A DNA stretch of 64,000 bases from an uncultured Candidatus Rokubacteria bacterium (GTDB lineage Bacteria; Methylomirabilota; Methylomirabilia; Rokubacteriales; CSP1-6): assembly GCA_963789955.1 (NCBI GenBank), contig CAWBMV010000007.1:1-64000 (forward strand). The letters are read 5' to 3'. A program made the position numbers and the translations under genes. Shown here in pieces: positions 7,920 to 60,816 of this stretch (the stretch's first letter is position 1; each line of letters opens with the position of its first letter). The notes under the pieces were generated by a model. That model had not been told where the DNA came from and searched no databases. It saw only the letters and a program-made list of their open reading frames with translations.

Positions 7920-8924
7920 TCAGTGCCCCGGACGGCTCTGCGCCGCCTCTTCTGCGCGCGTCGGCTCGCGCCCGGCCCCGAGATCCTGGAGCACGATGAT
8001 CGGCCGGCTGTTTCCCTCGAGAAGCCGCGCCGCAACGCTGCCGTATCGCTCGAGCGCGTCGCCGGTCCGTCCGTGCGCGGAGACCATGACGAGATCGACG
8101 TCGGCCTCGTCTGCCATCGCGCGGATGGCTCGCGCTCTCCGCGACGACACCACGATGCGCGTTCCGACGTGGAGCTTCTGCTCGAGCCGGTCCCGCAACT
8201 CGCCGAGGTAACGCTCGCCTTCGAGTCGGTTCCGCTCCGTGAGGCGCGACGCTACCGCGACATCCTCTGCCGAGGGTGGCAGACGGCGAGGCATCTCGGG
8301 CTCCGGCACGACGTGCGCGAGGATCATCTCGGCGTCGTGCGCGCGCGCGAGCGCCGTGGCGAGCGGCAGGACGCACTCCGCGCGCGGCGAGCAGTCCAGG
8401 GGCACGAGGAGGCGGCGGAGGCGGACATCGCCGATCCGCTGTCCTCCGGCGGCGTGCGCGGGGACGATCAGCACCGAGGTGCGGGCGCGCGCGACGACCA
8501 TCGCGGCCGTGCTGCTGAGGGCCCATCCACTCAGCCCTCCCTCACCGTGGCTCGAGAGGACGACGAGATCGACCTGGTGTGCCCCGGCGAAGTTGATAAT
8601 CTGCTCGGCGGGCCGTCCCTCCAGCAGCTCGATGGTCGATGTCATCCGCCTCGCCTTGAGATCGCGGTCGATCGCGGCGAGCCGGCTCTGAGCTTCCGCC
8701 CGTCTCATCTCCCAGTCCACCGCATCGTGGTGGTGGCTCGTGGAGCTCGAGACGGCGGGCGTCTCGAGGACGCGCAGGAGCGTGATGCGCGCGGCGAACA
8801 CTTGCGCCACCGCGACCGCCCACGGCAGCGCGCACTCGGCGAGCTGCGACCCGTCGAGCAGTACGAGCACATGGCGGATGGTAAGCTCAGCACATCGGGC
8901 CTCGTCCTCGCTGTTCGATTGCAT
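7920..8924 (-). CDS. Universal stress protein, tandem USP domains
   Basis: Two USP repeats (VLVLLDGS...VVLSSHG; LLVPLDCS...MVSAHG...GSVA); GAGGAGG RBS before ATG 8924. Confidence 0.9.
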   Translation of the reverse strand: MQSNSEDEARCAELTIRHVLVLLDGSQLAECALPWAVAVAQVFAARITLLRVLETPAVSSSTSHHHDAVDWEMRRAEAQSRLAAIDRDLKARRMTSTIELLEGRPAEQIINFAGAHQVDLVVLSSHGEGGLSGWALSSTAAMVVARARTSVLIVPAHAAGGQRIGDVRLRRLLVPLDCSPRAECVLPLATALARAHDAEMILAHVVPEPEMPRRLPPSAEDVAVASRLTERNRLEGERYLGELRDRLEQKLHVGTRIVVSSRRARAIRAMADEADVDLVMVSAHGRTGDALERYGSVAARLLEGNSRPIIVLQDLGAGREPTRAEEAAQSRPGH

Positions 8925-8961
8925 CGCCACATCCTCCTCAACGGCCCGCTGGCGCTCGGCT

Positions 8962-9647
8962 TCAGGACTGCACGTGTCGCCCGAAGAGGTGATGCTCGAA
9001 CCATGCGCGGGCCAGCTCGGCAACCCGCTTCAGGGCACCCGGCTCTTCAAAGAGATGTCCTGCCCCGGGCACGATTTCGAGGTGGGCTTCGGCGCGCATC
9101 TGCGCCAAGGCATCCTGATTCATCTTGATCACCGGGTAGTCGTTACCGCGACGATGAGAAGCGTCGGGGCCGCGACCCTGGGTAGCGTTGGGCTCGCCAG
9201 GTCCGGACGGCCACCACGCGAGACGATGGCGCCGACAGACCGTGGCCGCTCGACCGCCGCCATCAACGCGGCCGCCGCCCCCGTGCTCGCACCGAAGTAG
9301 CCGAGCGGGACGGCGCGCATCTCGGTGTCGGCCTGGAGCCAGTCCGTGGCGGCCACGAGCCGCGCCGCGAGCAGCGGAATGTCGAAGCGGAGACGGCCTG
9401 TCCCCACGTCCATCGCCTCCTCGTCGACCGTGAGCAGGTCTATGAGAAGCGTCGCCATCTCGCCCGCACGCAAGACTTCAGCGACAGCACGGTTGCGACG
9501 GCTGTGGCGGCTCGATCCGCTTCCGTGGGCGAATAGCACGACGCCCCGCGCCCGGGTCCGGGTCGGCACGATCAGATCCCCCTGCAGCATCACCCGTCCT
9601 GCCGGAATCCTCACGGCGCGGATCGTCTCGCTCGTGGCCGTCGCCAT
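8962..9647 (-). CDS. Dienelactone hydrolase-family alpha/beta hydrolase (frameshift near 9150)
   Basis: FAHGSGSSRHSRRN and GYFGASTG motifs; C-terminus VPGAGHLFEEPGAL...HVQS* read in an adjacent frame. Confidence 0.85.
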
Positions 9648-9674
9648 CTCAACCTCCCTGGGTCGGAACACCCA

Positions 9675-10077: not shown

Positions 10078-10093
10078 TGCATCGCGAGTGCCA
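10078..10093 (-). promoter_or_regulatory. sigma54 -24/-12 promoter
   Basis: Minus strand TGGCAC-TCGCG-ATGCA; boxes TGGGG-N9-CCTCA and TGTGG-N8-CCCCA at 10144-10184. Confidence 0.7.
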
Positions 10094-10159: not shown

Positions 10160-10819
10160 TCAGGGCTGTGGCGAGCACGCCCCAGGAGGCCGAAAGCGTC
10201 CTCGCACTGGCTGGACGCTCACCGCCCCGCACATGAATATCTGACCGTCCCGTGCGAACTCGCCGAATGATGGCTTGAGTCCACGATCGAGTGCTCGCAG
10301 TGTGGGACGGCCGATGTGGGCGAAGACGAGGCGCTTGATGCCGTGGCGCTTCGCCGCCTGCGCCGTCGCCCGGACATCCAGGTGGCCACCGACTCCGCGG
10401 GCGAATCGTATGGGCCGATTCCACGCCGCCGCCTCGGCGAACATGAGGTCGGCCCCTCGAGCCCATCGAGGGAACTCATAGAATTCCGGCGCCCATACTA
10501 CCGTGATGCCGGTCCCCTTGATCTGGTAGCCGCACGTCGGATGATTGGTGTGAACCACCGAGCGGTCCACGATGTGCAGGTCGCCACGATGGAAGGGTCC
10601 CGCATACGGGATGAGCCCGCGTTGCTTTGCCATCCTCCGGATCGACGTGATGAGCTCGCTCCGCTCGTCGGTCACGAGCCACGCGTCGAGCTTGGTTCGA
10701 GGGATCGCACCCGGTCCGCCATCGATGATGACACGCACGCCGGCGTGCGCCACGAGCAGCCCGGCCGGGGCGTATCGAGGCGACGCTTGCGCCCCGACGC
10801 CGAGTGTGACGAACCGCAC
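10160..10819 (-). CDS. Metallo-beta-lactamase-fold-like protein with degenerate metal motif
   Basis: N-terminal TLGVG, IIDGG, VVHT..GY, GGH and FAHIG elements; no HxHxDH. Confidence 0.6.
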   Translation of the reverse strand: MRFVTLGVGAQASPRYAPAGLLVAHAGVRVIIDGGPGAIPRTKLDAWLVTDERSELITSIRRMAKQRGLIPYAGPFHRGDLHIVDRSVVHTNHPTCGYQIKGTGITVVWAPEFYEFPRWARGADLMFAEAAAWNRPIRFARGVGGHLDVRATAQAAKRHGIKRLVFAHIGRPTLRALDRGLKPSFGEFARDGQIFMCGAVSVQPVRGRFRPPGACSPQP

Positions 10820-10843
10820 GCGCGATCTTCTCCTCAGCGCGCC

Positions 10844-13440: not shown

Positions 13441-14595
13441 TCACGCCTGCCGACCGAGTCCCAACGACGGGCGCGAGCTCCTGAGCTCGAGCCGGTCGTT
13501 CTCGTGCAGCTCTACCCGGTAGTCGAATCGCCGGCTCTCGCGATTGATCGTGTCCCTGAGCCACGCGGCGTCTGTGCGTGAAGCACGATTCAGTCTGAAG
13601 TTTCTGATCTGCATCGGGGTGAGATAGAGCTCGAGAAGCCGGCCCGTCAGAGGGTCCACGGTCGGGAAGAACATCAGCGCGAGGTCGTCCCGGAACTCCT
13701 CGTAGCCCGTAATTCCTTCGTAGTCGTCGAGCAAGTCGCCGCACCCATAAAGAATGAGCCTTTGCTCGAATATCTCGATCGGGCGGACGTGGTGGGAGGA
13801 GTGGCCGTGGACGACGTCAACTCCCGCTCGGATGAGGCCGTGGGCGAACCGGACGTGCTCGTCCGGGACGGCGAATCCCCAGTTGCTCCCCCAGTGAAGG
13901 GACGCGACGACGATGTCGCGGGGACGCTTGATGCTCCGGACCAAATCATCGATCCCATCGATCGTGTCGTTTGACAGATCCGTCAGCAAATTCACGCCCG
14001 GCCGATCGTCTGTCGCCGCCCAGCCGGGCGGGATCCCGCTCGTCTCGGTCCCGAACCCGAGAACGATCACCCGGCCCTTGCTCGGAACCTCGATCACGGC
14101 CGGTGCCCGAGCCTCGGCGAGGTTCCGGCCCGCGCCCGCGATCCTCACGCCCGCTGTCTTCAGAGTGTCCAGCGTCTCGCGCAGACCCGCATGGCGATAG
14201 TCGAAAGCGTGGTTGTTGGCCAGGACACAACAGTCGATGGACGCGGCGGTGATGCACGGCACGTTTTCGGGATGCATCCGGTAGTGGATGCCTTTCCCTT
14301 TCCAGTAGTCATCGCTGCGAGTGATGGTTGTCTCGAAGTTCACGATCCGCGCGTCCGGCCGCCGGGTCGCGAGTTCCTGGAGCGCATCACCCCAGATGTA
14401 AGGGAAGTCCACGGGGCGCGGAATCCGGCCATTCGCCTGTTCGGCCAGCTGCACGTAGCTCTCGGCATTGCGGACGTGTGGCTCTTGAATGCGGGGATTA
14501 CCGGGATACGGAAGCACCTGATCGACGCCGCGGCCCGTCATCACGTCGCCGCCGAGGAACATCGTGAGAGCGGAGTCGATAATCGCGTCGTCCAT
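13441..14595 (-). CDS. CapA-family (poly-gamma-glutamate synthesis) metallophosphoesterase
   Basis: GGDVMTGRG, NFET, LANNHAFD, SLHWG, HGHSSHH, YGCGD motifs. Confidence 0.9.
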   Translation of the reverse strand: MDDAIIDSALTMFLGGDVMTGRGVDQVLPYPGNPRIQEPHVRNAESYVQLAEQANGRIPRPVDFPYIWGDALQELATRRPDARIVNFETTITRSDDYWKGKGIHYRMHPENVPCITAASIDCCVLANNHAFDYRHAGLRETLDTLKTAGVRIAGAGRNLAEARAPAVIEVPSKGRVIVLGFGTETSGIPPGWAATDDRPGVNLLTDLSNDTIDGIDDLVRSIKRPRDIVVASLHWGSNWGFAVPDEHVRFAHGLIRAGVDVVHGHSSHHVRPIEIFEQRLILYGCGDLLDDYEGITGYEEFRDDLALMFFPTVDPLTGRLLELYLTPMQIRNFRLNRASRTDAAWLRDTINRESRRFDYRVELHENDRLELRSSRPSLGLGRQA

Positions 14596-14631: not shown

Positions 14632-16653
14632 CTATTCGGCGTCGGGGACGAGATCGAGAGCGGTAAGCCAGACCGTCGCCTCGGCATCGCTCGGCGCGCG
14701 CCAGTCGCCGCGCGGCGACAGCGAGCCTCCGGAGCCGACCTTGGGCGCGTTCGGGATACAGCTTCGCTTGAACTGGCTCAGCCGGAAGAAGCGATCCAGG
14801 AAGATTCTCAGATTCGCCTTGATCTGCGCCGGCGTGTATTTCTCGCGCCACGCGCAGTGGGCAAGGAAGGCGACCTTAGTCGGCGCGTAGCCGAACCGCG
14901 ACGTGTAATACAGGTTGAAGTCTTGGAGCTCGTACGGTCCGATCACGTCTTCGGTGCCCTGGGGCGGCTGCGAGCCCGCGCCCGCTCCCGGGATCAGCTC
15001 AGGGCTGATGCGCGTCGCCAGGACCGCCGCGAGCGCCGCGCTGACCTCGGGGCCGAACTGCTCGGTCTCGGCGACCCAGCGGATCACATGTTGGATGAGC
15101 GTCTTGGGAACGCTGGCGTTGACGGCGTAGTGAGACATGTGATCGCCGACGCCGTAGGTGCACCAGCCAAGCGCCAGCTCGCTGAGGTCACCCGTGCCGA
15201 TGACCAGCGCGTCGTGGAGATTTGCGAGGCGGAACAGATGGCTCGTGCGTTCGCCCGCCTGCACGTTTTCGAACGTCACGTCGTACGCCTTCTCGCCGCG
15301 GCTCACCGGGTGTTCGATGTCCCGAAGCATCTGCGTCGCGCTCGGCCGGATGTCGAGCTCATGGGCCTCGCAGCCGATGGCTTCCATCAGCCCGTGCGCC
15401 TGCTCGAGCGTGCGCCCACCGGTGGCGAACCCGGGCATCGTGTACGCGAGAATATGGGCGCGCGGGTAGCCGAGCGTGTCCAGCGCGCGGGCGCACACGA
15501 GGAGAGCGTGAGTGGAATCGAGGCCGCCCGAGATTCCGATCACGACCCGCCGGAGCCCGGTGAATTGCAGGCGCTTGACGAGGCCCTGCGCCTGGATCTC
15601 GTAGACCTCCGCGCAGCGCTCGCCGCGCTGGGCCGGGTCCGCGGGCACGTAGGGGAACCGCGCCCATCGCCGCTCGGGCAGGAGTCGCCCGCCACGGGGC
15701 AGCTCCAGCGGAACGCCGATCGTGCGGAAGTCCTCGAGCTCGCGGTGGTGGCGCTCGATCGTCTGCCCGATGCTCGTCGTGCGCATCCGCTCCTGCTGGA
15801 GCCGCTCGAGATCGATCTCCGCGCAGACGAGCTGGGGCGTGGGGCCGAAGCGGCGAGACTCACCGATGAGATTGCCGTTCTCGGAGACGAGAGCGTGGCC
15901 GTCCCACGCGAGGTCGGTGGTCGATTCACCGGGCCCCGCGGCAGAGTAGAGATAGGCGGCGAGACATCGCGCCGACTGGCTCGCGACCAGCTGGCGCCGG
16001 TAGTCGGCCTTGGCCACGGTGACGTTGGAGGCGGAGAGATTCAAGAGGATGGTCGCGCCGGCGAGCGCGGCGTAGGTCGAGGGCGGCAGCGGCACCCACA
16101 GGTCCTCACAGATCTCGACGTGAAATGTGGCCAGAGGTTGTTCCTCGAGCTGGAAGAGCAGGCGACTGCCGAAGGGGATCCCTCCCTGGCCGCCGAGCGT
16201 GATCTCGCGCCGCAGGGCGGTGTCCGCAGGGCTGAACTGGCGTAGCTCGTAGAACTCCCGATAGTTGGGCAGATATGTCTTCGGCACGGCGCCGAGGATC
16301 CGGCCCCCGGAAAGGACGACGCCGCAGTTGTAGAGGTGATGATCGACGATCACCGGCATCCCGACGACTGCGACCAGGGGCAGGCGGGCCGAGGCGCGGA
16401 CGACTGCGACGAGCGCTGCGTGAGAAGCGTCGAGCAGGGCGCGCTGCTGGAAAAGATCCTCGCATGAGTACGCCGAGAGGCAGAGCTCCGGGAACAGGAC
16501 CGCGACCACGCGCCGTTCCGCCGCGTCTTCGAGCAAGGCGATCGCCTGCTGTGCGTTGAACGCCGGATCGGCGACCCGAACGCCGGGAATCGCCACCCCG
16601 ACCCGGATGAGGTCGTGGTTGTAGAGATTGAAGAACTCGTCCCCCGACCTCAC
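14632..16653 (-). CDS. nadE: Glutamine-dependent NAD+ synthetase
   Basis: Nitrilase domain (FPELC, ICEDLW) plus [15 protein letters not shown] and GTGDLSE. Confidence 0.95.
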
Positions 16654-17298: not shown

Positions 17299-17313
17299 GC
17301 AACCCGGATGCCA
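17299..17313 (-). promoter_or_regulatory. sigma54 -24/-12 promoter
   Basis: Minus strand TGGCAT-CCGGG-TTGC; TGGGG-CGATCGCT-CCCCA at 17366-17383. Confidence 0.75.
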
Positions 17314-17452
17314 CAAGCCGACATCAAGGAAAACAAGGGCTAACGCGCTGACCAAGCAGGACGGCTGGGGCGATCGCTCCCCAACTCAGAAAACGCGGGG
17401 CGCCCAGGACCCGCTCGGCGACGCGGCAACTCTTCTCGCTCTCCCTTGCACT

Positions 17453-17872
17453 TCATTTGACGAGCAGGATCGGACAGCGACAGAAGACGCCGACCTTGTA
17501 GCTGGTCGTGCCCCAGCCGGTGGCGGGGCGGCCCGGTCGCACTGTGTGCGAGCCCATGACGATCAGGTCGATCGCATCCTTGACCGCGACGCGAACAATG
17601 TCACGCGCGGGCTCGCCGATGCAAACCTCGGTATCGACTGGCACCCGCTGGGCCGCGAACCGCCGAGCGATCCGCGCAAGCTTCTCGACCGAGGCCGTCT
17701 CGAGGCGCTCGTAGAAATCGCGCAGCTCGCCGAAAGGAAGGTCGGGAACACTCTGGATCACATGCAGCAGGGTCACTCGCGCGTGCGTTTGCCGCGCGAG
17801 TGCCAGCGCGGTCCGGATCGCGCGCTGGTTCCGGTCGCTCAGATCGGTTGGCACGAGGAGGTGCTTGAACAT
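17453..17872 (-). CDS. Universal stress protein (single domain)
   Basis: MFKHLLVPTDLS...DLIVMGSH...CPILLVK. Confidence 0.9.
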   Translation of the reverse strand: MFKHLLVPTDLSDRNQRAIRTALALARQTHARVTLLHVIQSVPDLPFGELRDFYERLETASVEKLARIARRFAAQRVPVDTEVCIGEPARDIVRVAVKDAIDLIVMGSHTVRPGRPATGWGTTSYKVGVFCRCPILLVK

Positions 17873-17874
17873 GT

Positions 17875-18302
17875 TTATCCGCGCAATGGCTTCGCCCGTC
17901 CCCCGCTCGCGGTGCCTGGACGCCGGCCCGCCTCCGGGCGCGACGACCGCACCCAGGCGAGGAGCTCCTTCGCAGGCCAGGTATTGACGACGCCGGCCTT
18001 CTCGACCCGGGCCCGGCGGGCAGTCGCCGCGCCGAGCTCGATCGACGTGAGGTGATCCAACACGTGCGCATCGGTGTTGACGACGATCAAGATACTCGAG
18101 GATTTTTCCCGCGAGGTCCTTCCCCACCCCGGGGATCTCTTCGAGGCGCTCCTCGCGCGCGAGCGTCTCGACGTCCTCGGTGAGCGTCTCGAGGTTCTGG
18201 GCGGCGCGCCGGTAGGCGCGAATGCGGAACGGGTTCTCCCCCCTTGATCTCGAGGACGTCCGCCATCAGGTCGAAGAGGCGCGCGAGCTCGAAATTTTTC
18301 AT
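17875..18302 (-). pseudogene. polX: DNA polymerase X/PHP relic with a large internal deletion
   Basis: N-terminus MKNFELARLFDLMADVLEIKG..NPFRIRAYRRAA...IPGVGKDLAGKILEYL followed, in another frame, by the PHP C-terminus IVVNTDAH...ARRA...VVNTW. Confidence 0.8.
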
Positions 18303-18534: not shown

Positions 18535-18945
18535 TCACCCGGCTCCGACCTCGGCCTGCGCCTCGGCCCACAACTCCTTCAGAGCCTTCGGCAGTTGGGC
18601 GAAGACGTCTTCGGCCTCGCCCGGAGCGAGGTGCTCCTTGAGCGCCGCGAAGACCGCCAGCGTCATCCAGCGCGCGTCGCGTGCGCTGCCGAGCTTCGCC
18701 TCGACCTTCTCGCGCTCGAGGAACTCCTCCCGGGTGAGCTTCATCGGCGTGCGTTCGGGCAGCTCGCCCTCTTCCCAAACCTGCTTGAGGTCGCGCGGGA
18801 GTTGGGCCAGCACCTGGTCGGCCTCGTTGGGCGTGAGGCGATCTCGCAGCGCGTGGAAGACCGCCGCCGTCGTACGCTTCGCGACGTCGCGGCTCTTCTC
18901 GCCACTCGTACCCATCACGATCCTGTAAAACGCTGCACTGCTCAT
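18535..18945 (-). CDS. DUF2267-family protein
   Basis: Internal repeat AVFHALRDRL..EADQVLAQLP / AVFAALKEHL..GEAEDVFAQLP. Confidence 0.85.
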   Translation of the reverse strand: MSSAAFYRIVMGTSGEKSRDVAKRTTAAVFHALRDRLTPNEADQVLAQLPRDLKQVWEEGELPERTPMKLTREEFLEREKVEAKLGSARDARWMTLAVFAALKEHLAPGEAEDVFAQLPKALKELWAEAQAEVGAG

Positions 18946-18969: not shown

Positions 18970-20424
18970 TCAGCCCTTGATGTTCCCGATCGGTGTCAGC
19001 GAGACGACCTTGCGCGAGATATCGAGACGGTCCACGACGTCCACGACCTCGCCGAGGTCCTTGTAGGCGAAGCCCGCCTCCTCCGCGACGCCCGACTTGG
19101 ACGCGGCGCGAACGACGATCCCGCGTTCTGCCATCTGCTTGAGGAGCGCCTCACCCCAGACCTGGCGCTTGGCCTGAGCACGGGACATCGTGCGTCCCGC
19201 CCCGTGCGCGGTCGAGCCGAACGTCTCCGTCATCGCGTGCACCGTGCCGACGAGAAGGGCCGAGCCGGTCTCCATCGACCCGCCGATGATCACGGGCTGG
19301 CCGACTTCTCGATAAGCCGCGGGCACGTCGGCCGCGCCGGGGCCGAACGATCGGGTCGCCCCCTTGCGGTGCACCACGAGCTCGAGCGCTTGGCCGTCGA
19401 CGACGTGGCGCTCGAGCTTGGCCGTGTTGTGGCAGACGTCGTAGATCACGCCGAGCCCGAGATCGCGTGGGTCCTTGCCGAACACGCGTCCCATCACCTC
19501 GCGCACGCGATGGGTCATCACCTGACGGTTCGCGAACGCGGCGTTGGCAGCGGCCGTCATGGCGCCGAAGTACGCCTGGCCCTCCGGCGAGCGGAACGGC
19601 GCACACGCGAGCTCGCGGTCCCGCACCGTGATGCCGTAGCCGCGCATGGCCTGGTCGAATCGCCTGAGGTAGTCGGTTCCGATCTGATGCCCGAAGCCGC
19701 GCGAGCCGCAGTGGAGCATGACGAGAATCTGGCCGGGCCGCTCGATACCGAAGGCCTTCGCCACACGCGAATCGTGGATCCCATCGTGAGGCACAACCTG
19801 GATCTCGAGGTAGTGATTGCCCGAGCCGAGCGTGCCGAGCTGGTCCCGGCCGCGGGAGACCGCGCGCTCGCTCACCTGAGCGGGATCGGCGCCTGCAAGG
19901 CAGCCGCCGCCTTCGGTCGCGTCGAGGTCTTCAGGCCAGGCGTACCCGTGCCGCAGGCACCAACGGGAACCGTCGCGCATGACTTCACCGAACTCGTCCG
20001 CGGAGAGCCGTACGAATCCCTTGGACCCCACGCCCGACGGAACCGCGTCGAAGAGCGCGTCGACGAGTTCGGTGAGCTTCGGCCGGACCTCGGCCTCGGT
20101 GAGGCTCGTTCGCAGCACCCGCATGCCGCAGTTGATGTCGAACCCGATCCCGCCGGGCGAGATGACGCCGGTGTCGGCGCGGAACGCCGCGACGCCACCG
20201 ATGGGGAACCCGTAGCCCCAGTGGCCGTCGGGCATACAGAGCGCGGCCCGCACGATCCCGGGTAGGCACGCGACGTTCGTCACCTGCTCGAACACGCCCT
20301 CGTCCATCCGGCGGAGCAGCGCCTCCGACGCGTAGATGCGCGCCGGCACCAGCATGCCCGGCTTCTCGCTCGGTGGGATCTCCCACACGCAGTCGCCGAC
20401 CGGAAGCGCCTTCATCGTCGTCAT
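18970..20424 (-). CDS. rtcB: RNA ligase RtcB
   Basis: MPDGHWGYGFPIGG, GFDINCG, GTLGSGNHYLE, HCGSRG, HNTAK, VHRKGAT, HGAGR. Confidence 0.97.
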   Translation of the reverse strand: MTTMKALPVGDCVWEIPPSEKPGMLVPARIYASEALLRRMDEGVFEQVTNVACLPGIVRAALCMPDGHWGYGFPIGGVAAFRADTGVISPGGIGFDINCGMRVLRTSLTEAEVRPKLTELVDALFDAVPSGVGSKGFVRLSADEFGEVMRDGSRWCLRHGYAWPEDLDATEGGGCLAGADPAQVSERAVSRGRDQLGTLGSGNHYLEIQVVPHDGIHDSRVAKAFGIERPGQILVMLHCGSRGFGHQIGTDYLRRFDQAMRGYGITVRDRELACAPFRSPEGQAYFGAMTAAANAAFANRQVMTHRVREVMGRVFGKDPRDLGLGVIYDVCHNTAKLERHVVDGQALELVVHRKGATRSFGPGAADVPAAYREVGQPVIIGGSMETGSALLVGTVHAMTETFGSTAHGAGRTMSRAQAKRQVWGEALLKQMAERGIVVRAASKSGVAEEAGFAYKDLGEVVDVVDRLDISRKVVSLTPIGNIKG

Positions 20425-20866: not shown

Positions 20867-21340
20867 CTACGCCGCCTTCACCGGGATCGCCGTGCCCTTC
20901 GCCGCCGGCGTCTTCGGCAGCTTGACCGTCAGCACGCCGTCCTTGAAGATCGCGTTCACCTTCTCGGTTTCCACACCGGCCGGGAGCGTGATGGTGCGGA
21001 CGAAGTCGCCCCACGAGCGCTCGACCCGGTGGTACTTCGCGTCTTTCTCGTCCTTCTCTTCTTTCTGCTTGTGCTTCTCCCCCTTGATGGTCAGCATGTG
21101 GTTCTCGAGCGAAACGCTGACATCCTTCTGCTCGACACCGGGGATCTCCGCCTTCACGATGAAGGCGTCCTTGGTCTCGGAGAAGTCGAGCTTAGGCGCC
21201 CAGGCGCCGGCCGCCGCGAACTCGTCCCGGCGGGGCTCGAAGAATCGGTCGAAGACCCGCTCCATGTCCTCTCGCAGCGCATCCATCCCTCTCCACGGAG
21301 CCAATGCACGCATGATGACCTCCTTCTCCATGCTCGCCAT
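20867..21340 (-). CDS. Hsp20/alpha-crystallin small heat-shock protein
   Basis: AEIPGV, LTIKGEK, ERSWGDFVRTITLP, FKDGVLTVKLPK; true start may be a few codons later. Confidence 0.95.
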   Translation of the reverse strand: MASMEKEVIMRALAPWRGMDALREDMERVFDRFFEPRRDEFAAAGAWAPKLDFSETKDAFIVKAEIPGVEQKDVSVSLENHMLTIKGEKHKQKEEKDEKDAKYHRVERSWGDFVRTITLPAGVETEKVNAIFKDGVLTVKLPKTPAAKGTAIPVKAA

Positions 21341-21520: not shown

Positions 21521-21766
21521 CGACGGGCGAGGCGAGAGTCGTTGAATTCAAACATGTCCTCGACGCGCAGGTGCAGGCATTCTGGGGCGTCACCGCCACA
21601 CTGAGGCGGGGCGGCGCCGTCGGGTCGAGGAGAGTGAGCCATGGACGAACTGGCGATTGGTGAAACGCAACACGCGGCGGGCGGTCGACGGCATCATCGA
21701 CTACTTCGGCGATCCGGCTGCCGCCCCGCCCCGGCAGAACGTTCAGCGAGCGTCATGTCGAATTCC

Positions 21767-22975: not shown

Positions 22976-23818
22976 ATGAAAATCCTGGTGGCTACGGACG
23001 GTTCGACCGGGGCCCTTCAAGCCCTGGATTGGCTGGCAAACTTTCCGATGCCTGCCGACGCGACAATCGAAGTCGTGAGCGCCTCCCGTCTGCCACTTTC
23101 AGCCAAAGCGGCCGCGGCGATGGGATGGCGTGAGTTCCTCGCCGAGAGCCAGCGCGTCGTGGACAATGCCTGTGAGCGGCTCGCGAAACGCTGGACGGCC
23201 GTGGCCGGACGGGTGCTCGACGGCGACGCCCGTGAAACCATCGTAGAGGCAGCAACACAGGGCAAGGCGGACCTCATCGTGGTCGGCGCACGGGGGCTCA
23301 GCGAAGCGGCTTCGTTCCTGCTCGGGAGTGTGTCACTCGGCGTCACCCGCGGTGCACCATGTCCGGTCCTCGTCTGCCACGGCCGGGCGCGGCCCGTGCG
23401 CAACATCATCATCGCGCACGACGGGTCTCCCGACGCTCGCCTGGCCGTCGACTACTGCTCCAGGCTCCCGTTCGCCCCGGAGGTCGCCGCGGTTCTCGTC
23501 GGCGTCGTCGAGCCGTTAGCCTGCCCGGCAACCGCGCCCGGGCTCATCAAACCAGAGCTGAGAACGCTGGTGCAGGATCATGAGAACGAGACGCGCAGCA
23601 GGCTCGCGTCCTCGCTCGGTGAGGCCGCGGACGTCTTGCGCTCCCACGTACGCGAAGTCGACATCGTGACGCCGAAAGGCGCGCCGGCGGCGACCATCCT
23701 GAGAGAGGCCGAAGCTCACGACGGCAACCTCATCGTCGTCGGCGCGCGAGGCCTCGGGTCGGAATCGGTTCTCCGCCACGCGAGGTGCCCTGTGCTCGTC
23801 GTGCAGCGGCGCGTCTAG
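22976..23818 (+). CDS. Universal stress protein, tandem USP domains
   Basis: MKILVATDGS...GARG...LLGSVS; the second domain lacks the LLLGSV segment (ARGLG-SESV). Confidence 0.9.
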   Translation: MKILVATDGSTGALQALDWLANFPMPADATIEVVSASRLPLSAKAAAAMGWREFLAESQRVVDNACERLAKRWTAVAGRVLDGDARETIVEAATQGKADLIVVGARGLSEAASFLLGSVSLGVTRGAPCPVLVCHGRARPVRNIIIAHDGSPDARLAVDYCSRLPFAPEVAAVLVGVVEPLACPATAPGLIKPELRTLVQDHENETRSRLASSLGEAADVLRSHVREVDIVTPKGAPAATILREAEAHDGNLIVVGARGLGSESVLRHARCPVLVVQRRV

Positions 23819-29367: not shown

Positions 29368-29529
29368 GGCCGGCGCACACGGTTTCTCAGCGATCTAGAC
29401 GATGCGCCGAGCCGGGACACAACCGCGCGCTAAGCAAGAGCGCGGCGTCAGTGCCTCACTTGGGGCAGCGATCTCCCAGGTCGTCCATCGCACAGTGGCC
29501 TAAGTCCCCGAACCGATTCATTCGATCGC

Positions 29530-29544
29530 TGGCACCGCGCTTGC
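29530..29544 (+). promoter_or_regulatory. sigma54 -24/-12 promoter
   Basis: TGGCAC-CGCGC-TTGC; tandem boxes CGCGG-N8-CCTCA and TGGGG-N8-TCCCA at 29441-29478. Confidence 0.8.
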
Positions 29545-33495: not shown

Positions 33496-33640
33496 TGGTA
33501 GCCGAGCCGTCGTCGCCCGCCCGGTCCCCTGTCCCACACTGACGCCGCGGCGCGACCAGGCGAGGCGGTCGCTCCCCAGGTGTCGCCAAAACTCCGTCGG
33601 CACAAGCGATGTAAGCGGGCGATTCGATTCGTTTTCGCCG

Positions 33641-33656: not shown

Positions 33657-33669
33657 CTCTCCATCGGGC

Positions 33670-37273: not shown

Positions 37274-37348
37274 TGGAGCGGCCGACCGGATTCGAACCGG
37301 CGACGTCCAGCTTGGGAAGCTGGCATTCTGCCACTGAATTACGGCCGC
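37274..37348 (-). tRNA. tRNA-Gly (CCC)
   Basis: GCGGCCG acceptor stem, CCAGC-TTCCCAA-GCTGG anticodon arm, GGTTCGAATCC T-loop, encoded CCA; 75 nt. Confidence 0.97.
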
Positions 37349-53394: not shown

Positions 53395-53422
53395 TTGATA
53401 TATATGAATATTAATATATAAT
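53395..53422 (+). promoter_or_regulatory. sigma70 promoter with overlapping ArsR-type operator
   Basis: TTGATA-N16-TATAAT; 22-bp inverted repeat at 53399-53420 with one mismatched pair. Confidence 0.8.
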
Positions 53423-53429
53423 ACTTTTC

Positions 53430-53789
53430 GTGAGCACGGCGTCGTCGCCGCATCTCCAGTCGTTCAAGGCTGAATTCTTCAAGGCCCTGGCCCATCCGAT
53501 CCGTATCCGGCTGCTCGAAGTCCTGCGCGGCGGTGAGCGCAGCGTCCAGGAGCTGCAGACTCGCCTCGAGCTCGATCAGTCGATCGTCTCGCAGCAGCTT
53601 GCGATCCTGCGCGCCAAGAACATCGTGACCGCCCGGAAAGAGGGCACGACGGTGCGGTACGAGATCCGCGATCCGCTCGTGGGCGATCTGCTCGACGTGG
53701 CGCGGCGGATCTTCAACAACCAGCTGGCCGGCACCCAGACCATGCTGCGCGCGCTCCGCCAGGAGGCGCGCCGGCCGGCGCGGCGCTGA
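53430..53789 (+). CDS. ArsR/SmtB-family regulator (Rv0081-like)
   Basis: KAEFFKALAHPIRIRLLE, SQQLAILR. Confidence 0.92.
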   Translation: MSTASSPHLQSFKAEFFKALAHPIRIRLLEVLRGGERSVQELQTRLELDQSIVSQQLAILRAKNIVTARKEGTTVRYEIRDPLVGDLLDVARRIFNNQLAGTQTMLRALRQEARRPARR

Positions 53790-53792
53790 CCG

Positions 53793-54305
53793 GTGCTTCG
53801 CCAGCTCCGGACCGCGCTCCGCACGGGCATCGTCACGGAGCCGGTCACTCGCACCGGCGACCTCGAGCGAATCGGCGAGCGACTGGCCGCGGAGGTCGCA
53901 CGGCTCTTCGGCCGCTCGCTCGCGATACGGCAGGTCGACGCCGGCTCCTGCAACGGCTGCGAGCTCGAAATCGGCGGGCTCACCGGGCCGCACTACGATG
54001 TCGAGCGATTCGGGATACATTTCGTCGCTTCGCCGCGCCACGCCGACTGCCTGCTGGTGACGGGCCCGGTGACTCGCAACATGGCCGAGGCGTTGCGGCG
54101 CACCTGGCAGGCGACGCCGGATCCCAAGTTCGTGGTCGCCGTCGGCGACTGCGGGCGTGACGGCGGTCTCTTCCGAGGATCCTACGCGGTCGTGGGCGGC
54201 GTCGCCGACGTCATCCCGGTCGACGCCATCATCCCCGGGTGTCCGCCGTCGCCGGCGGCGCTCCTTGCCGGCCTGCTCGAGGCGATCGGGCGGCTCCCCG
54301 GGTGA
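53793..54305 (+). CDS. Ehr small subunit (NuoB/HyfI-like)
   Basis: AGSCNGCELE, SPRHAD, VGDC, IPGCPP. Confidence 0.9.
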   Translation: MLRQLRTALRTGIVTEPVTRTGDLERIGERLAAEVARLFGRSLAIRQVDAGSCNGCELEIGGLTGPHYDVERFGIHFVASPRHADCLLVTGPVTRNMAEALRRTWQATPDPKFVVAVGDCGRDGGLFRGSYAVVGGVADVIPVDAIIPGCPPSPAALLAGLLEAIGRLPG

Positions 54306-56213
54306 GCCGGCTCTCGTACGGACTGGTCGTGCTCTGCGGCGTCGCCGCCATGGGCCTCGGCGGCTACGGAATGGCGGGCGGCGCCGGCACGCTTCGGGTC
54401 ACCTGGCTGGTGCCGCTCGGGGGCCTCGAGCTGACACTCGATCCCCTCGGGGGATTATTCCTCGCATTGATCGGGTTTGCCGCGGTGCCGGCATCGGTCT
54501 ACGCAATGGGTTACCCCGACGGCGGCGGGCGCGATCGGTTGACGTACGTCGTCTTCGTCGTGTCGATGTGCCTCGTTCCGCTCGCCGCGAACGTGATGAC
54601 CTTCGTGATCGCGTGGGAGCTGATGTCTCTGGCGTCCTACCTTCTGGTTCTTCACGACCGAGAATCCAAGGAGTCGATCCAGGCCGGCTGGGTCTACGCG
54701 GTGATGACCCATGCAGGCCTCGCCTGCCTCCTCGCGGGCATGCTCCTGCTCGGTGCCGACGCGGGGAGTCTGCGATTCGCGGACTGGCGATCGGCGGCGC
54801 CGGCGCTGGCGCCCATGACCCGCAACGCGGCCTTCGTGCTCCTGGCACTCGGCTTCGCGGGCAAGGCGGGCGTGATCCCACTGCACGTCTGGCTGCCGCT
54901 GGCCCATCCAGCCGCGCCGAGCCACGTGTCGGCCCTCATGTCGGGCGTCATGATCAAGCTCGGGGTCTACGGCCTCCTTCGCGTGACCCTCGACTGGCTC
55001 GGGCCCGGTCCGGGCTGGTGGGGCGCCGCCCTGCTGATCGCGGGCGCCGCCTCGGCGGTGATCGGCGTGCTCTACGCGCTCGTCGAGCACGACCTCAAGC
55101 GGCTCCTGGCGTTCCACAGCATCGAGAACATCGGAATCATCCTGCTGGGCATCGGGAGCGCGGCGCTCTCTCGCGTCGCCGGTCTGGACGCGCTCGCGAT
55201 TCTTGGCCTGGTCGCGGCGCTCTATCACACGATCAATCACGCGGCGTTCAAGGCGCTGCTGTTTCTGGGCGCCGGTGCCGTCGTGCACGCGACGGGCACG
55301 CGGAACATGGAGGCGATGGGCGGGCTCATCAAGCGGATGCCGTGGACCGCCGCCTGCTTCCTGATCGGCTCGGCGGCGATCGCCGCGCTGCCGCCGCTCA
55401 ACGGCTTCGTGAGCGAGTGGCTCACGTTTCTGGCTCTCTTCCAGAACACGCGGCTCGACGCGGTCGGACAGAATCTGGTCTTCACCTTGGGGATCGCGAG
55501 TCTCGCGCTGACCGGCGGCCTGGCGATGGCGTGCTTCGTCAAGGCGTTCGGCATCACGTTCCTGGCGCTGCCCCGGAGCGACGCGGCGGCCGGCGCTCAC
55601 GAGGCGAGCCCGCCGATGCGGCTGGCCATGCTCGCCCTCGCGGCCGCCTGCGTCGCGCTCGGACTGGGACCGACGCTCGTGGTGCCGGCGCTCGGATCGG
55701 TCGCCTCTGCCGTGCTGCGAACGCCGCCGCGGGCGGCCGGTGGGGACTGGCTGACGCTTGCGCGTCTCGGGCGATTTCGCGAGCCTGTCGACGGCGGCGA
55801 TCGCTCTCGCCCTCGTCCTGTCGCTCCTCGTACCGCTCGGGGTCCTCCGGCTCGTCGGCGCGTCGCGCCGGACGCGCGACTACGAGACGTGGGGCTGCGG
55901 CCGCATCGTGCAGACCGCGCGGATGGAGTACACGGCGACCGCGTTCGCCAACCCCTTCAAGCGCGTGTTCGACTTCTTCTACCGGCCGACGAAACGCCTC
56001 GACATCGAGTTCCATCCCGGGTCGCGCTTCTTCGTCGAGCGCATCGAGTACGAGAACCCGACCCGATCGATCTTCGACGACTGGCTCTACCGGCCCGCGC
56101 TCGATCTCCTGCACGCCGGGGCGCGCGCCGTCGGAGCGCTGCAGTCGGGCAGCACGAACCAGTATCTGGCCTACATCCTGGCCGCCCTGCTGCTGATGCT
56201 GGTGCTCGCGTGA
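54302..56213 (+). CDS. HyfB/NuoL-like antiporter subunit (frameshift near 55760)
   Basis: AWELMS, PLHVWLPLAHP, KRLLAFHSIEN, LPPLNGFVSEW. Confidence 0.9.
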
Positions 56214-57154
56214 TCGCCGGCGTCGCCGTGGCCATCGTGCAGATCCTGATCGTGGGAGCCGGAGCGCCTCTGCTGGTCGGCACGCTCCGGACACTCAAGG
56301 CACGGCTCATGGGTCGTCGCGGGCCGAGCCCATGGCAGCCCTATGCCGACCTTCGCAAGCTGCTCGCGAAAGAAGCGGTCGTCTCCACGACGACCTCGTG
56401 GGTGTTCCGCGCGACGCCATACATCCTCGTGGCGACCTTGCTGGTGGCGGCGCTCATCGTGCCGGTCGTGACGACGCGGCCGCCGCTGGCGTTCGCGGGC
56501 AATGTCATCCTGCTCGTCTATCTCTTCATGCTCGGCACGTTCTTTCTCGCGCTGGCCGGATTGGACGCGGGCAGTGCATTCGGGGGAATGGGCGCGAGCC
56601 GGGAGGTGGCGGTCGCCGCGCTCGCCGAGCCGACGGTCATCATCGCGGTGTTCGCGCTCGCGCTGCGCGCGGGCACGATCGACCTCGGCCGCGTCGTCGA
56701 GCGCTTCGGTGGCGAGCCGTGGCTGGCGGCCAACCCCGCGCACCTTCTCGCGTTCGCCGCGTTCTTCATCGTCATGCTCGCCGAGACCGGGAGGCTTCCG
56801 GTCGACAACCCGGCGACGCACCTCGAGCTGACCATGATCCACGAGGCGATGGTGCTCGAGTACTCCGGCCGCTATCTGGCGCTCGTCGAGTGGGCGTCGG
56901 CGATGAAGCTGTTCGTGTTCATGACCTTGCTGGCAAACCTCTTCGTCCCGTGGGGCCTGACGGAGCCAACGGGTCTCGTTCCGGTGCTCCTGGGTGTCAT
57001 GGCGCTGGCCGCCAAGCTCGCCGTACTCACGGCGGCCGTCGCGTTGCTCGAGACGGCGGTGGCCAAGCTGAGATTGTTCCGGGTTCCCGAGCTGCTGGCG
57101 GGATCGTTCGCGCTCGCCTTTCTCTCGCTCATGGCGGTCTTCCTCGTTCGATGA
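56210..57154 (+). CDS. HyfC/HycD (NuoH-like) subunit
   Basis: GRRGP..QPYADLRKL, GASRE, ETGRLPVD, EAMVLEYSG. Confidence 0.9.
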   Translation: MIAGVAVAIVQILIVGAGAPLLVGTLRTLKARLMGRRGPSPWQPYADLRKLLAKEAVVSTTTSWVFRATPYILVATLLVAALIVPVVTTRPPLAFAGNVILLVYLFMLGTFFLALAGLDAGSAFGGMGASREVAVAALAEPTVIIAVFALALRAGTIDLGRVVERFGGEPWLAANPAHLLAFAAFFIVMLAETGRLPVDNPATHLELTMIHEAMVLEYSGRYLALVEWASAMKLFVFMTLLANLFVPWGLTEPTGLVPVLLGVMALAAKLAVLTAAVALLETAVAKLRLFRVPELLAGSFALAFLSLMAVFLVR

Positions 57155-57793
57155 CGACCGCGTCGAACCTCCTGGCGTTCCTGGGACTGGTGGTCACCCT
57201 GCTGATCGTGTGGCGGCAGAGCTGGCCGGCGCGGCTCCGGCTCTTCGCCGCCCAATCGCTCCTGCTGGCAGCCCTGGCGAGCACCGTCGGCGTGCTGGCG
57301 CAGCGCCGCGGTCTCCTGCTGGTGGCGGTCGTCGTCGTCATCGTCAAGGGGGTGGTGATCCCGCGCGTGCTCGGGCGGATCGGATCGGGGGCTCCCGTGC
57401 GCCCGATCGCGCCCGGCCGGTCCTCCGGAATCACGCTCCTGGTCGCGGGCGGCCTCGTCGTCGCGGCCTACGTCATCATGCTGCCGGTCACCACGGCCGT
57501 GGAGCTGCCGACCGAGGGAGCCATCCCCCTGGCGTTCGCGATGGCGCTGATCGGCCTCGCGCTGTGCGTCACCGGTCGCGATGCGCTGGGCCACATCCTC
57601 GGGCTTCCTGGTCTTCGAGAACGGGATCTTCGGTCTGGCGATCCTGGCGACCTACGGCCTGCCCGGCATCGTGGAGGCCGGCGTCTTTCTCGACGTGCTG
57701 GTGATCGTGCTCATCATGGAAGCCGTCGTCGTCCAGGTGCGTCGCGAGCACGACTCGATCGACGTCGACCGTCTGCGGGAGCTTCGCGGATGA
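57151..57793 (+). CDS. HyfE-like subunit (frameshift near 57600)
   Basis: QSLLLA, VKGVVIP, GFLVFENGI, ELRG C-terminus. Confidence 0.85.
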
Positions 57794-59223
57794 TCCTGGC
57801 CGCCATCCTCGGCGATCCCCCTCGTCGGCGCCGCGCTCTCGTGGCGTGCGAGCGGTCGCTGCGCGACGCGCTTCACGCGGTGACGTCGGTGCTGACGCTG
57901 GCGGGAGCCCTCACGGTCACGGTGACGGTGAATCGCGGTGAGCCCTGGTGGCGTTCGACGGGTTCCTTCGCGCCGACGCGCTCTCGGCGTGGATGATCGC
58001 GCTCATCGGTATCGTCGGCGCGCTCGCCGCGTCGGAGGCGCCGCGCTACGTCGCGCCCACGACGTCGGGCCGCTTCTATTCACTCTTCCACCTGTTCGTG
58101 TTCACGATGCTGCTGGCGGTCTCCACCGACGACGTCGGGCTCATGTGGGTGGCCGTCGAGGGCACGACCCTCGCGTCGGTGTTCCTCGTCAACTTCGAGC
58201 GGACGCGCGCGTCGCTCGAGGCGTCCTACAAGTACCTGCTGATCTGCTCGGTGGGCATCGCCATCGCGTTCCTGGGGACGGTGCTCGTGTACTTCGCGGG
58301 CATCGCAGCAGTTCGGCGACGAGGTCCACGCGCTTCGCTGGACGACGCTCTTGCGGCTCGCGCCCGGTCTCTCGCCGCGGGTCATCGAGCTCGCGTTCGT
58401 GTTCCTCGTGGTCGGGTACGGCACCAAGGCCGGCCTCGCGCCGATGCACACGTGGCTGCCCGACGCCCACAGCGAGGCGCCGGCGCCGGTGAGCGCGCTC
58501 ATGTCGGGCGTGCTGCTGAGCGTCGGCGTGTACGCGATCCTGCGATTCAAGCCGGCCGTGGACATCGCGGCCGGGCCCGGATTCGCGCGCGGCATCATGC
58601 TGGCGCTGGGCCTGCTGTCGGTCGCGGTGGCCGCCGCGTTCCTGTGGACGTCGCCCAACTACAAGCGCATGCTCGCGTACTCGAGCGTCGAGCACATCGG
58701 CCTGGTGTGCCTCGGTCTCGGCTTCGGCGGAACACTCGGCACCTCCGGCGCGCTCCTTCACATCGCCAATCACGCCCTGGCGAAGTCGATCGGCTTCCTG
58801 CTCACCGGTCGTATCCGCGCCGCGTACGGCTCGGCCGAGATCGCCGCCGTCGGCGGCCTGATGCGGGATATGCCGCGGACCGGCACGGCCTTCCTGGCGA
58901 CGATGCTCGCGCTCGTCGGCTTGCCGCCGTTCGGACTGTTCGTCAGCGAGGTGATGATCTTCGCCGCCGGCTTCGCCCAGGGGTTTCCCTTCGTCACGGG
59001 CGCCGCGCTCTTCCTGCTCGTCATCGCCTTCGCGGGCCTCCTCCGCGGAGTCCACGCGATCTGTACGGACCATCGGCGGGCGAGCCGGCCGTCGAGGCCG
59101 CCGGATGGCGCCCGGCGTTCCCATTGGCCGCCACGCTTCGCTCTGCTGCTGCTCACCGGGATCGCGTGGCCGCCGGGTCTCGGCGCGGCCCTCGACCGCA
59201 TCGTCGCGATCGTGATGCCCTGA
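57790..59223 (+). CDS. HyfF-like antiporter subunit (frameshifted)
   Basis: WVAVEGTTL, EASYKY, GTKAGLAPMHTWLPDAHSEAP, KRMLAYSSVEH. Confidence 0.88.
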
Positions 59224-59224
59224 G

Positions 59225-60816
59225 ATGCCGACCGCGATACTCACGGTGGATGCGCTGCAACACGCCGTCGTGCGGGCCGGCGCCACAAGCGTCGCCGCGT
59301 CGACCACGAGCGCGAATCCAGTGCCGGTTGCCGGCCTGGGAGATTCCCGCGCTCGCCGACGGTCTGGCGCCGCTCGGCGCCCGCTGCCAGTTCCTCGCTG
59401 CCGCGGACACACGCGCTCACCGGCGGCGACTACACGCTCGGTCTACGTCTTCGCGCCGCCGCAGCTGGCGCCGTCGGTGACGGTGCTCGTCGCAGTCCCC
59501 GGCGGCGGTGGCGCGCTTCGCCTCGCTCGCGACACGCTCGTTCGCGGCGAGCCGCTTCGAGCGCGAGATTCACGACCTGTTCGGCCTGGTCCCGGAGGGA
59601 CATCCGGATCTCCGGCGCCTCGCGCTCCATCAATACTGGCCGGACGGATATCACCCGTTGCGCCGCGACGTCGTGCCGCGTACGGACTTCGTCGACGCCG
59701 GCGAGCCGTTTCCCTTCCGGCACGTCGAGGGCGAGGGCATCTTCGAGATCACGGTGGGCCCGGTCCATGCCGGGATCATCGAGCCCGGCCACTTCCGCTT
59801 CAGCGTCGAGGGCGAGACGATCGTGAACCTCGAGACGCGACTCGGCTTCGTCCACAAGGGCACCGAAAAGCTCTTCGAGGGCCTCGCCTTCGACCAGGCG
59901 CCCGCGCTCGCCGAACGCATCTCGGGCGACACGAGCGTCGGCCACGTCCTCGCCTACTGTCAGGCGCTCGAGACGCTCGCCGGCTGCACCGTGCCGCTTC
60001 GAGCGCACCGGCTACGCGTCGTCCTGCTGGAGCTCGAGCGGATCTACAACCACGTCGGCGACGTGGGCATGATCGTCAACGACACCGGGTTCAGCTTCGG
60101 CCACTCGCACTGCTTCCGGATCCGCGAAGAGCTCCTCCGGCTCAACGAGCGCCTGACCGGGCATCGGCTGCTCCGCGGCGCGGTGGTGCCGGGCGGCGTG
60201 ACCGGGCCGATCGCGACGGCGTCGCTGGCCCAGGCGGCGGCGAGGATCGACGATCTGGTCGCCGAGTTCGCGGCGGTGCTGCGGCTCTGCCTCGACAACA
60301 CGACGGTGCTCGAGCGGCTCCAGGGTACGGGACGACTGACCTCGCAGACGGCGACCGAGATGCAGGTGGTCGGGTTGGTCGGACGGGCGAGTGGGATCGA
60401 CGCCGACGTGCGGCGCGACGCACCCTTCGCGGCGTACGGCGAGAACGGGGTGCACGTGTCGGTCTACGGAACGGGAGACGTCTGGGCGCGGACGATGGTG
60501 CGCCTGGACGAGGCGCGCGAGGCGGCGCGCCTCATTCGCGAGGTCACGGCGCGTGACGCCGACGGCGTCGCGGCGGCCCCGATCCCGCCGCTCACCGCGG
60601 GCGCCCACGCGTTCGGCCTCGTCGAGGCGTGGCGAGGACCCGATCTGGCATTGGGTGGTGGCCGACGGCCCCACGACGCTCGGCCGCGTGAAGGTCGTCG
60701 ATCCGTCCTTCCGCAACTGGCCCGCGCTCGAATACGCGGTGCTGAAGAACATCGTCCCGGACTTTCCCCTCTGCAACAAGTCCTTCAACCTCTCCTATTC
60801 CGGGAACGACCTGTAG
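59225..60816 (+). CDS. Ehr large subunit (HyfG/NuoCD-like, no Ni-binding cysteines; frameshifted)
   Basis: EREIHDLFG, GPVHAGIIEPGHFRF, ERISGD instead of RxCxxC, C-terminal NKSFNLSYSGNDL instead of DPCxxC. Confidence 0.88.

Follow-up and report, generated by a model that had tools for sequence, protein, structure and literature searches.

The window considered here is a stretch of 64,000 nucleotides (positions 1-64000 of contig CAWBMV010000007.1, hereafter C7) from the assembly GCA_963789955.1 of an uncultured Candidatus Rokubacteria bacterium, a genome that is 87% complete and whose contigs C2, C6, C10, C34, and C37 also enter below. An earlier note on this DNA held that the genes between 7920 and 60816 mirror the DosR dormancy regulon of Mycobacterium tuberculosis and are wired to sigma-54. 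That interval turns out to consist of two unrelated blocks, accessory DNA to the left of a tRNA-Gly gene and, to the right of it, backbone shared with congeners. The accessory block carries stress genes of a sigma-54 regulon that is real and well supported, that likely receives its input from predicted heme-binding PAS kinases, and that is smaller within the window than the note had drawn it.

Stress genes of the accessory block

The listed families, namely three universal stress proteins (USPs), Hsp20, archease, RtcB, a CapA-like protein, a dienelactone hydrolase, a type II P-type ATPase, and an ArsR-led Ehr operon, were all confirmed by Pfam, NCBIfam, or PDB matches. Those in the accessory block are as follows.

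7920..8924, minus strand: two-domain USP (Pfam PF00582 twice), the last clear gene behind the promoter at 10093 and probably part of its operon
9129..9647, minus strand: stand-alone dienelactone-hydrolase-like protein (PDB 2O2G, E 2e-54), with one frameshift near the 3' end
13441..14595, minus strand: CapA/PGA_cap-family protein (PF09587, E 1e-77), a family that we take, with the earlier note, to be that of Rv0574c
14632..16653, minus strand: glutamine-dependent NAD synthetase NadE (NF002730, 990 bits against a cut-off of 473; best PDB match 3DLA)
17453..17875, minus strand: single-domain USP (Pfam), preceded by remnants of YbaK-like and PolX-like genes
18535..18945, minus strand: DUF2267 protein (domain search)
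18970..20424, minus strand: RtcB RNA ligase, a second, regulon-type copy, 50% identical to the housekeeping copy on C6
20426..20854, minus strand: archease, likewise a second copy (the housekeeping one is on C34)
20867..21340, minus strand: Hsp20 small heat-shock protein, first gene of hsp20-archease-rtcB
22976..23818, plus strand: two-domain USP (Pfam; weak match to Rv2623, E 2e-7)
34250..36661, plus strand: type II P-type ATPase, with no box or sigma-54 site directly upstream

Phased enhancers upstream of sigma-54 promoters

When 75 sigma-54-like sites from the whole genome were scanned for an upstream palindrome, one emerged 50 to 75 bp upstream of them, TGGGGC-N6-GCCCCA. Its variants, TG[G/T]G[G/A]C-N6-G[C/T]C[C/A]CA, are tied to sigma-54 -24/-12 sites and lie about 51, 62, or 73 bp upstream of these. 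A box model built from 53 promoters in relatives (16.3 bits) yields 22 box promoters in the genome, compared with 2 in the reversed genome. Seven are in the window (10093-29530), 12 on C10, 2 on C34, and 1 on C2, placing 19 on C7 and C10 together; a wider spacing between box and promoter brings the total to 24. The window promoters score as high as those of C10 under this model. Because the training sites had been picked with a pattern first seen in this genome, the model was also retrained on 14 C10 promoters alone, and this version recovers five of the seven window promoters. The window sites, with the boxes assigned to no strand, are listed here.

10079..10093, minus strand: sigma-54 -24/-12 site (site scan and model)
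10167..10184: enhancer box, 73 bp upstream of the 10093 site, 15.7 bits, recovered by the C10-only model too
17299..17313, minus strand: sigma-54 site heading genes for DUF3175, a small open reading frame (ORF), nadE, and capA (site scan and model)
17366..17383: enhancer box, 52 bp upstream of the 17313 site, 14.8 bits
21506..21520, minus strand: sigma-54 site with exact TGGCAC-N5-TTGC (site scan)
21583..21600: enhancer box, 62 bp upstream of the 21520 site, 17.2 bits
22751..22923: divergent sigma-54 sites (22765 on the minus strand, 22909 on the plus strand) with one weaker common box at 22820-22837, 8.5 bits, not recovered by the C10-only model
29352..29544: divergent sigma-54 sites at 29366 (minus strand; HlyD and ABC-2 transporter genes) and 29530 (plus strand; HtrA), with tandem boxes at about 29441-29478

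The arrangement is not confined to this genome. In strict form, the box-plus-promoter pattern occurs in 37 of 151 genomes of the class, against 8 for the reversed pattern. Across 141 distinct promoters, which come from related genomes so that p-values overstate the case, the box distances are helically phased, with peaks at 50-53, 61-63, and 70-74 bp (period 10.5-11, R 0.58-0.59), and a second, weaker box site recurs 19-20 bp from the first. Sites resembling what we take to be the consensus for integration host factor (IHF) are present in 21 of these promoters versus 0.9 in shuffles. The genome also encodes rpoN. Promoters of the -24/-12 type, rpoN, a phased and often tandem palindromic site upstream, and an IHF site are the hallmarks of a sigma-54 regulon under an NtrC-type activator, and all are present.

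The proposed wiring to sigma-54 therefore stands for the window from 7.9 to 30 kb. It fails for the P-type ATPase and the ArsR-Ehr operon, neither of which has such a promoter before it: the top scores for box and sigma-54 site are 2.5 and -8.9 in the first case and -1.3 and -1.9 in the second.

Outside C7 and C10, the regulon promoters lie at C34:1119026 and 1119927, before a YbaK/USP gene and an hsp20-dksA pair, and at C2:6896. Two similar divergent pairs of sigma-54-like sites that have no box, at window positions 11539-11618 and at C37:520485-520528, each precede a DUF2267-like gene and possibly mark a second regulon under another activator. The window also holds two HtrA/DegP-like paralogs 17.5 kb apart (11727-13436 and 29585-30908; 69-77% DNA identity), of which only the second has a box promoter.

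A candidate activator on contig C10

What binds the box? Contig C10 is a 64-kb cluster encoding USPs, CBS and BON proteins, Hsp20, GroEL, LonB, PCMT, pyruvate dehydrogenase (PDH), AckA/Pta, and P-type ATPases, along with two kinases and one NtrC-type activator of receiver-AAA+-helix-turn-helix (HTH) architecture at about 46350-47755. Among the 30 activator genes of the genome, this one alone lies within 5 kb of a box promoter. Orthologs of its HTH, close to single-copy, occur in 74 of the 151 class genomes (76 matches minus G087 and G009, weak non-orthologs with 39-47% identity), and a box with promoter follows within 400 bp of the activator ortholog in 22 of 29 loci, three of the seven misses being cut by contig ends. 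Among family genomes, kin that are not independent, the strict pattern occurs in 21 of 38 with the activator and in 3 of 35 without it. Linkage and co-occurrence thus point to the C10 activator as the likely binder of the box. The window's own sigma-54 activator (48393-49776) was also considered and rejected, having a different HTH and no box promoter within 5 kb.

The occurrence of the DosR-like genes was also compared across relatives. Of the 73 family genomes, 21 encode a window-type RtcB (at least 74% identity), and 19 of these are activator positive. In 14 of 20 relatives its gene is preceded by the box promoter at no more than 5 kb, usually in the order hsp20-archease-rtcB; of the remaining loci, three have less than 1.2 kb of contig upstream. 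The housekeeping rtcB has the promoter in none of 20 activator-positive genomes, and both results are the same with either box model. CapA is present in 11 of the 73 genomes (9 activator positive) and the hydrolase in 6. Members of the P-type ATPase family in G097 and G033 do have the promoter, unlike the window copy.

Further activator loci were taken from the best 80 of the 597 stretches listed, and the range outside the phylum is a sample. One homolog of the activator carries the name Candidatus Rokubacteria, and among the listed stretches the closest with a name belong to Methylomirabilota/Rokubacteria. Of the 80 loci, seven not labelled Methylomirabilota, including Gemmatimonadota, Binataceae, and delta-proteobacterial ones, have a heme-type PAS domain beside the activator. 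In L165 (Gemmatimonadota) and L170, and likewise in the class member G036, two boxes and a sigma-54 site precede CBS/USP genes; the order in L165 is heme-PAS kinase, activator, box, sigma-54 site, and CBS/USP. The box, the candidate activator, and the putative sensor recur, then, across Rokubacteria and in a Gemmatimonadota record.

No contig-end overlap was found that would join C10 to C7. The C10 cluster further contains (L002:9478-15277) an archaeal-type fructose bisphosphatase (PF01950) and an archaeal-type S-adenosylmethionine synthetase (PF01941), the latter sharing a reading frame with PCMT and an adenylylsulfate-kinase-like domain.

Predicted heme-PAS kinases

Heme-PAS kinases linked to a sigma-54 activator, for which the earlier note had proposed a search, were indeed found, heme binding being a prediction. 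The kinase P0001, adjoining the C10 activator, is a soluble PAS-HisKA-HATPase protein. Its PAS domain has as best PDB match 10JX, the heme-bound PAS domain of FG214, followed by FixL and DosP. In FG214, His156 is the proximal heme ligand, His159 is also important, and the distal position is taken by Met172 in reduced crystals or by His175 in the ferric state (bioRxiv 10.64898/2026.03.15.711900; here and below, statements drawn from cited papers refer to the accessible portions of their text). FG214 His156, His159, and Met172 align without gaps with His112, His115, and Met128 of P0001, the numbering of the paper being offset. A structural model built from a 24-sequence alignment reached a predicted local distance difference test (pLDDT) score of 87, and its top 24 listed fold matches are all heme-PAS domains from FixL, DosP, and FG214; a single-sequence model (pLDDT 42) was discarded. 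As modeled, the P0001 PAS domain has the fold and proximal His of this sensor class, and it keeps the second His and the Met of FG214 as well. It differs from FG214 and FixL in its setting: FG214 is a one-component transcription factor (bioRxiv 10.64898/2026.03.15.711900), and the partner to which FixL signals is FixJ rather than a sigma-54 activator.

The window carries a relative of this kinase.

31589..33799, plus strand: MASE4-PAS-PAS-HisKA kinase, followed by a single-domain receiver (to 34092)

Its second PAS domain (32882-33238) retains the His/His/Met heme-pocket residues, and no HATPase domain was found in the gene, a truncated paralog. These two PAS domains are the only ones of the heme type in the genome, one per regulon cluster. 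In the phosphotransfer region, P0001, the window kinase, and the membrane kinase encoded directly upstream of the activator are 59-67% identical, versus at most 43% for other kinases. How general is the heme pocket? Alignment A2 was made solely of PAS domains already having the His, so its invariant columns are no independent count; the unbiased figure for the His and Met motif is 18 of the 29 best kinase loci of relatives.

A proposed low-oxygen survival program

How might these parts work together? Our preferred reading, to which we give a probability of roughly 0.6, is that the stress genes at 7.9-30 kb are expressed from sigma-54 promoters with a phased enhancer, under the C10 activator and predicted heme-PAS kinases, as part of a low-oxygen survival program. 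The enhancer, the sigma-54 site, their helical phasing, the second, weaker site, and the IHF-like site, all evident in the sequence, would form the promoter end of the pathway. The activator would bind the box, and P0001, the membrane kinase, and the truncated window kinase may feed it by way of their closely related phosphotransfer helices. The PAS domain of P0001 is predicted to bind heme via His112 and, on the distal side, a Met128 that can be displaced, which would let it sense O2, NO, CO, or redox state. Judging from gene content, the output would be protein and RNA repair (Hsp20, GroEL, RtcB/archease, PCMT, USPs, CBS proteins) together with energy saving (AckA/Pta, PDH). The regulon would then be induced as oxygen falls.

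The NmpRSTU system of Myxococcus xanthus likewise has an NtrC-type sigma-54 activator, a heme-dependent kinase input (predicted here), and tandem sites, and the hypoxia-induced targets of NmpR include a USP, a CBS protein, and a P-type ATPase (PMC11841059). It differs in using a protoglobin sensor (kinase NmpU) where we find a PAS domain, in its site, GCGCA-N5-TGCGC, and in the size of the regulon, which is larger here at 22 to 24 promoters (PMC11841059). A protoglobin kinase of the Nmp kind was considered and rejected for our genome, whose single protoglobin is a stand-alone gene. In Burkholderia cenocepacia, lxa is a clustered accessory low-oxygen locus with six USPs, an alpha-crystallin, phospholipid-binding proteins, and a cation ATPase; its authors already noted the family-level overlap with DosR, and it has an Anr/Fnr-like TGA-N6-TCA motif rather than a sigma-54 enhancer (PMC3721108). 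No description of the present activator or box in Rokubacteria was found in a literature search that extended to neither subscription journals nor supplements, and the accessible text of the Desulfovibrio vulgaris sigma-54 regulome paper, figures and supplements aside, has no match for USP, hsp20, or the box.

Several observations weigh against the low-oxygen reading. (i) The activator gene is split by frameshifts; these are probably assembly errors, because the assembly has many frameshifts that also hit core genes (argS, for example, is split) and because the orthologs are intact. (ii) Immediately upstream of the activator lies the membrane kinase gene, and the PAS domain of this kinase lacks such a His. 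(iii) The PAS domain of P0001 has Gly in place of FG214 His175 and lacks the distal Arg of FixL, so its ligand chemistry may differ. (iv) Only 2 of 10 relatives have CapA directly behind a promoter, and 3 of 6 loci have the hydrolase behind one, so neither is a conserved core member. (v) Several window genes are remnants, and the window kinase is without its ATPase domain. (vi) The single-contig genome G014 has no His-PAS match, and no box lies within 20 kb of its activator ortholog. (vii) A cbb3 oxidase, hemN, and hemerythrin, the clear oxygen link of NmpR, were not seen among the annotated members (PMC11841059).

Could the main signal be something other than oxygen? The same regulon and activator might respond chiefly to envelope, heat, desiccation, or energy stress sensed by the membrane kinase, with the heme-PAS kinases as accessories. 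The membrane kinase is, after all, a co-transcribed neighbor of the activator here and in many Rokubacteria, members such as HtrA, GroEL, LonB, PCMT, and PolX are general damage-repair genes, and the His/Met kinase is found in 18 of the 29 loci, not in all. In G036, L165, L170, and L184, however, it is the heme-PAS kinase itself that sits directly upstream of the activator, and sets of USP, CBS, BON, Hsp20, and P-type ATPase genes are induced by low oxygen in Burkholderia (PMC3721108) and Myxococcus (PMC11841059). We regard this alternative as unlikely, though a serious one.

Comparison with the DosR regulon

How far does the resemblance to DosR go? The TSGGG-N8-CCCSA motif first suggested as the link was rejected: its single exact window match is reached by 42 of 100 shuffles, and the 15 matches with one mismatch compare with 18.1 expected. 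The half-site of the box described here, GGG[G/A]C, does resemble that of DosR, which contacts G4-G5-G6-A7-C8-T9 in each half-site, but the spacer is 6 bp rather than 4 (PMC3177182). Variants of the DosR consensus score at most 3.3 bits on the local model versus 8.5-19.6 for local sites, the core GGGACT-N2-AGTCCC does not occur in the genome, and GGGAC-N4-GTCCC occurs three times, equal to the reversed control. The box geometry is thus not common to the two, and the caution in the earlier note that the motif resemblance may be coincidental was well placed.

The regulators part ways as well. DosR is a NarL-type regulator with heme-GAF HisKA_3 kinases (DosS and DosT), whereas here the regulator is of the AAA+ type, the kinases are PAS-HisKA proteins, and the promoters depend on sigma-54. 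A search for DosS-type GAF-HisKA_3 kinases came up empty in the ORFs scanned of this incomplete genome; it has two HisKA_3 kinases with no GAF domain in the ORFs around them, one an RsbU_N-PAS protein and the other with its N-terminal part outside the scan, and neither is near the clusters. Nor is a module shared with mycobacteria borne out by the proteins compared: among PDB proteins only, the one window USP compared, of the three present, matches Rv2623 weakly and a C10 CBS protein has Rv2626c as its 20th of 38 matches, in both cases no better than unrelated family members.

What the two systems have in common is an arrangement and a set of families: the input of at least two kinases into a single regulator (as inferred here), tandem palindromic boxes, and USP, Hsp20, CBS, archease-RtcB, CapA-like, and cation ATPase proteins (PMC3177182, PMC5309233), archease-rtcB and CapA being on the DosR list itself (PMC5309233). 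The NAD synthesis gene had been paired with pncB2. It is nadE, however, and not a PncB2-type nicotinate phosphoribosyltransferase; the DosR list names Rv0573c for nicotinamide recycling (PMC5309233), so the match holds at the level of the pathway only. The proposed mirroring therefore survives as a sigma-54 regulon of USP, Hsp20, archease-RtcB, CapA, hydrolase, and NadE genes, and loses the pncB2 counterpart, the ArsR-Ehr operon, and a DosR-type box.

The ArsR-Ehr operon merits separate treatment.

53395..53425, plus strand: AT-rich operator/promoter of ArsR-Ehr, not of the sigma-54 type, conserved in relatives; outside the regulon
53430..60816, plus strand: ArsR gene (53430-53789) and Ehr complex operon; outside the regulon

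Ehr complexes are hydrogenase-4-like with a large subunit that lacks nickel-binding cysteines, and the operon conforms, its subunits being hydrogenase-4-like and its large subunit lacking the CxxC nickel ligands. The ArsR protein has Rv0081 as its best PDB match (E 7e-20), and at 29 of 30 loci its gene stands first in an Ehr operon. Most of the 30 genomes have TTGAC-like and TATA-like elements in the AT-rich operator before this Rv0081-like ArsR (window 53395-53425; L230-L259), making it a candidate binding site for this ArsR clade. The box precedes ArsR-Ehr in none of the 30 loci, and the operon occurs in 17 of 38 family genomes with the activator and in 20 of 35 without it. With its own conserved operator, no box, and no co-occurrence with the activator, ArsR-Ehr drops out of the proposed module. 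The resemblance to Rv0081-87 is genuine. Even so, the operon is conserved on its own, belongs to the backbone, has no relation to the regulon, and is found at a distance of 16 kb from the island by chance.

Might a DosR regulon nevertheless be shared with mycobacteria by descent, with the Ehr operon included and a box related to that of DosR? The Rv0081-like ArsR, the archease-rtcB and CapA families, and the GGG[A/G]C half-site would fit, as would a phosphoribosyltransferase-hydrolase fusion on C37, an architecture that we take to be that of Rv0571c. The spacer, the scores of the DosR variants, the missing core, the sigma-54 promoters, the two HisKA_3 kinases, the distribution of ArsR-Ehr, and nadE all speak against common descent, which we consider highly improbable. 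The fusion itself (L330:16121-17545, minus strand; C37 at about 521.1-522.5 kb) lies near genes for DUF2267, TerC, a second rpsD-like protein, and PPK2, and no box promoter was found there. The window set is not a DosR regulon, and a functional analogy with low-oxygen or dormancy regulons would be a reasonable description of it; the likeness probably reflects a common low-oxygen toolkit redeployed under another regulator.

The island and its neighbors

The accessory block ends at a tRNA gene.

37274..37348, minus strand: tRNA-Gly(CCC), right border of the accessory block

Synteny with congeners begins here and extends rightward: four of five same-genus genomes match from about 37230 with 79-93% identity, and the fifth matches the window from 43.0 kb only. 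The left block is non-syntenic in congeners, which hold different DNA at the tRNA-Gly site. A 47-bp exact copy of the 3' end of the tRNA gene (window 37274-37320) at C37:514013-514059 suggests an integrated element reaching from C37 near 514 kb to the window tRNA; no integrase was seen among the ORFs scanned around it.

Such a setting raises the possibility that the regulon is real in the lineage while the window block is a decaying second cluster, largely silent or redundant. The truncated kinase, the duplicated tRNA end, the lack of synteny, and the remnants of PEP (phosphoenolpyruvate) synthase-like, alcohol dehydrogenase-like (both identified by eye), YbaK-like, and PolX-like genes are consistent with this. 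Yet hsp20-archease-rtcB, nadE, capA, and the USP genes are intact, the promoters score like those of C10, and the congener G148 has the hsp20-archease-rtcB unit and its promoter at 91% identity. Decay to this degree is improbable in our judgment, and we retain the low-oxygen reading for the block.

Just downstream of the first USP gene and perhaps co-transcribed with it lies a fragmented large gene (window 312-7818, minus strand) with glucoamylase-like and GH94 domains, presumably cyclic beta-glucan synthase-like. On the backbone side, a LexA-like peptidase S24 gene is split over two frames (45187-45979).

Implications

These findings are not evidence for the mycobacterial dormancy system outside Actinobacteria. 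Rather, the DosR-like gene set looks like a portable toolkit that different phyla have placed under different regulators, and a second archease-RtcB pair is tied to the stress program. Rokubacteria are uncultured, and the analysis offers a candidate activator, a putative binding site, a regulon of 22 to 24 promoters, and a small, soluble predicted sensor domain; activator, site, and sensor are amenable to testing in Escherichia coli or in existing metatranscriptomes.

A broader proposal, which we put forward tentatively, is that His/Met heme-PAS kinases, one sigma-54 activator, and TGGGGC-N6-GCCCCA form a conserved master switch for low-oxygen dormancy, so far undescribed, that operates in Methylomirabilota, Gemmatimonadota, and Binatia. 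If true, this would add one more independent wiring of the shared USP/Hsp20/CBS/RtcB toolkit to those of DosRST, Anr/Fnr, and NmpRSTU, and a dedicated second RNA-repair ligase would be a core output of the switch.

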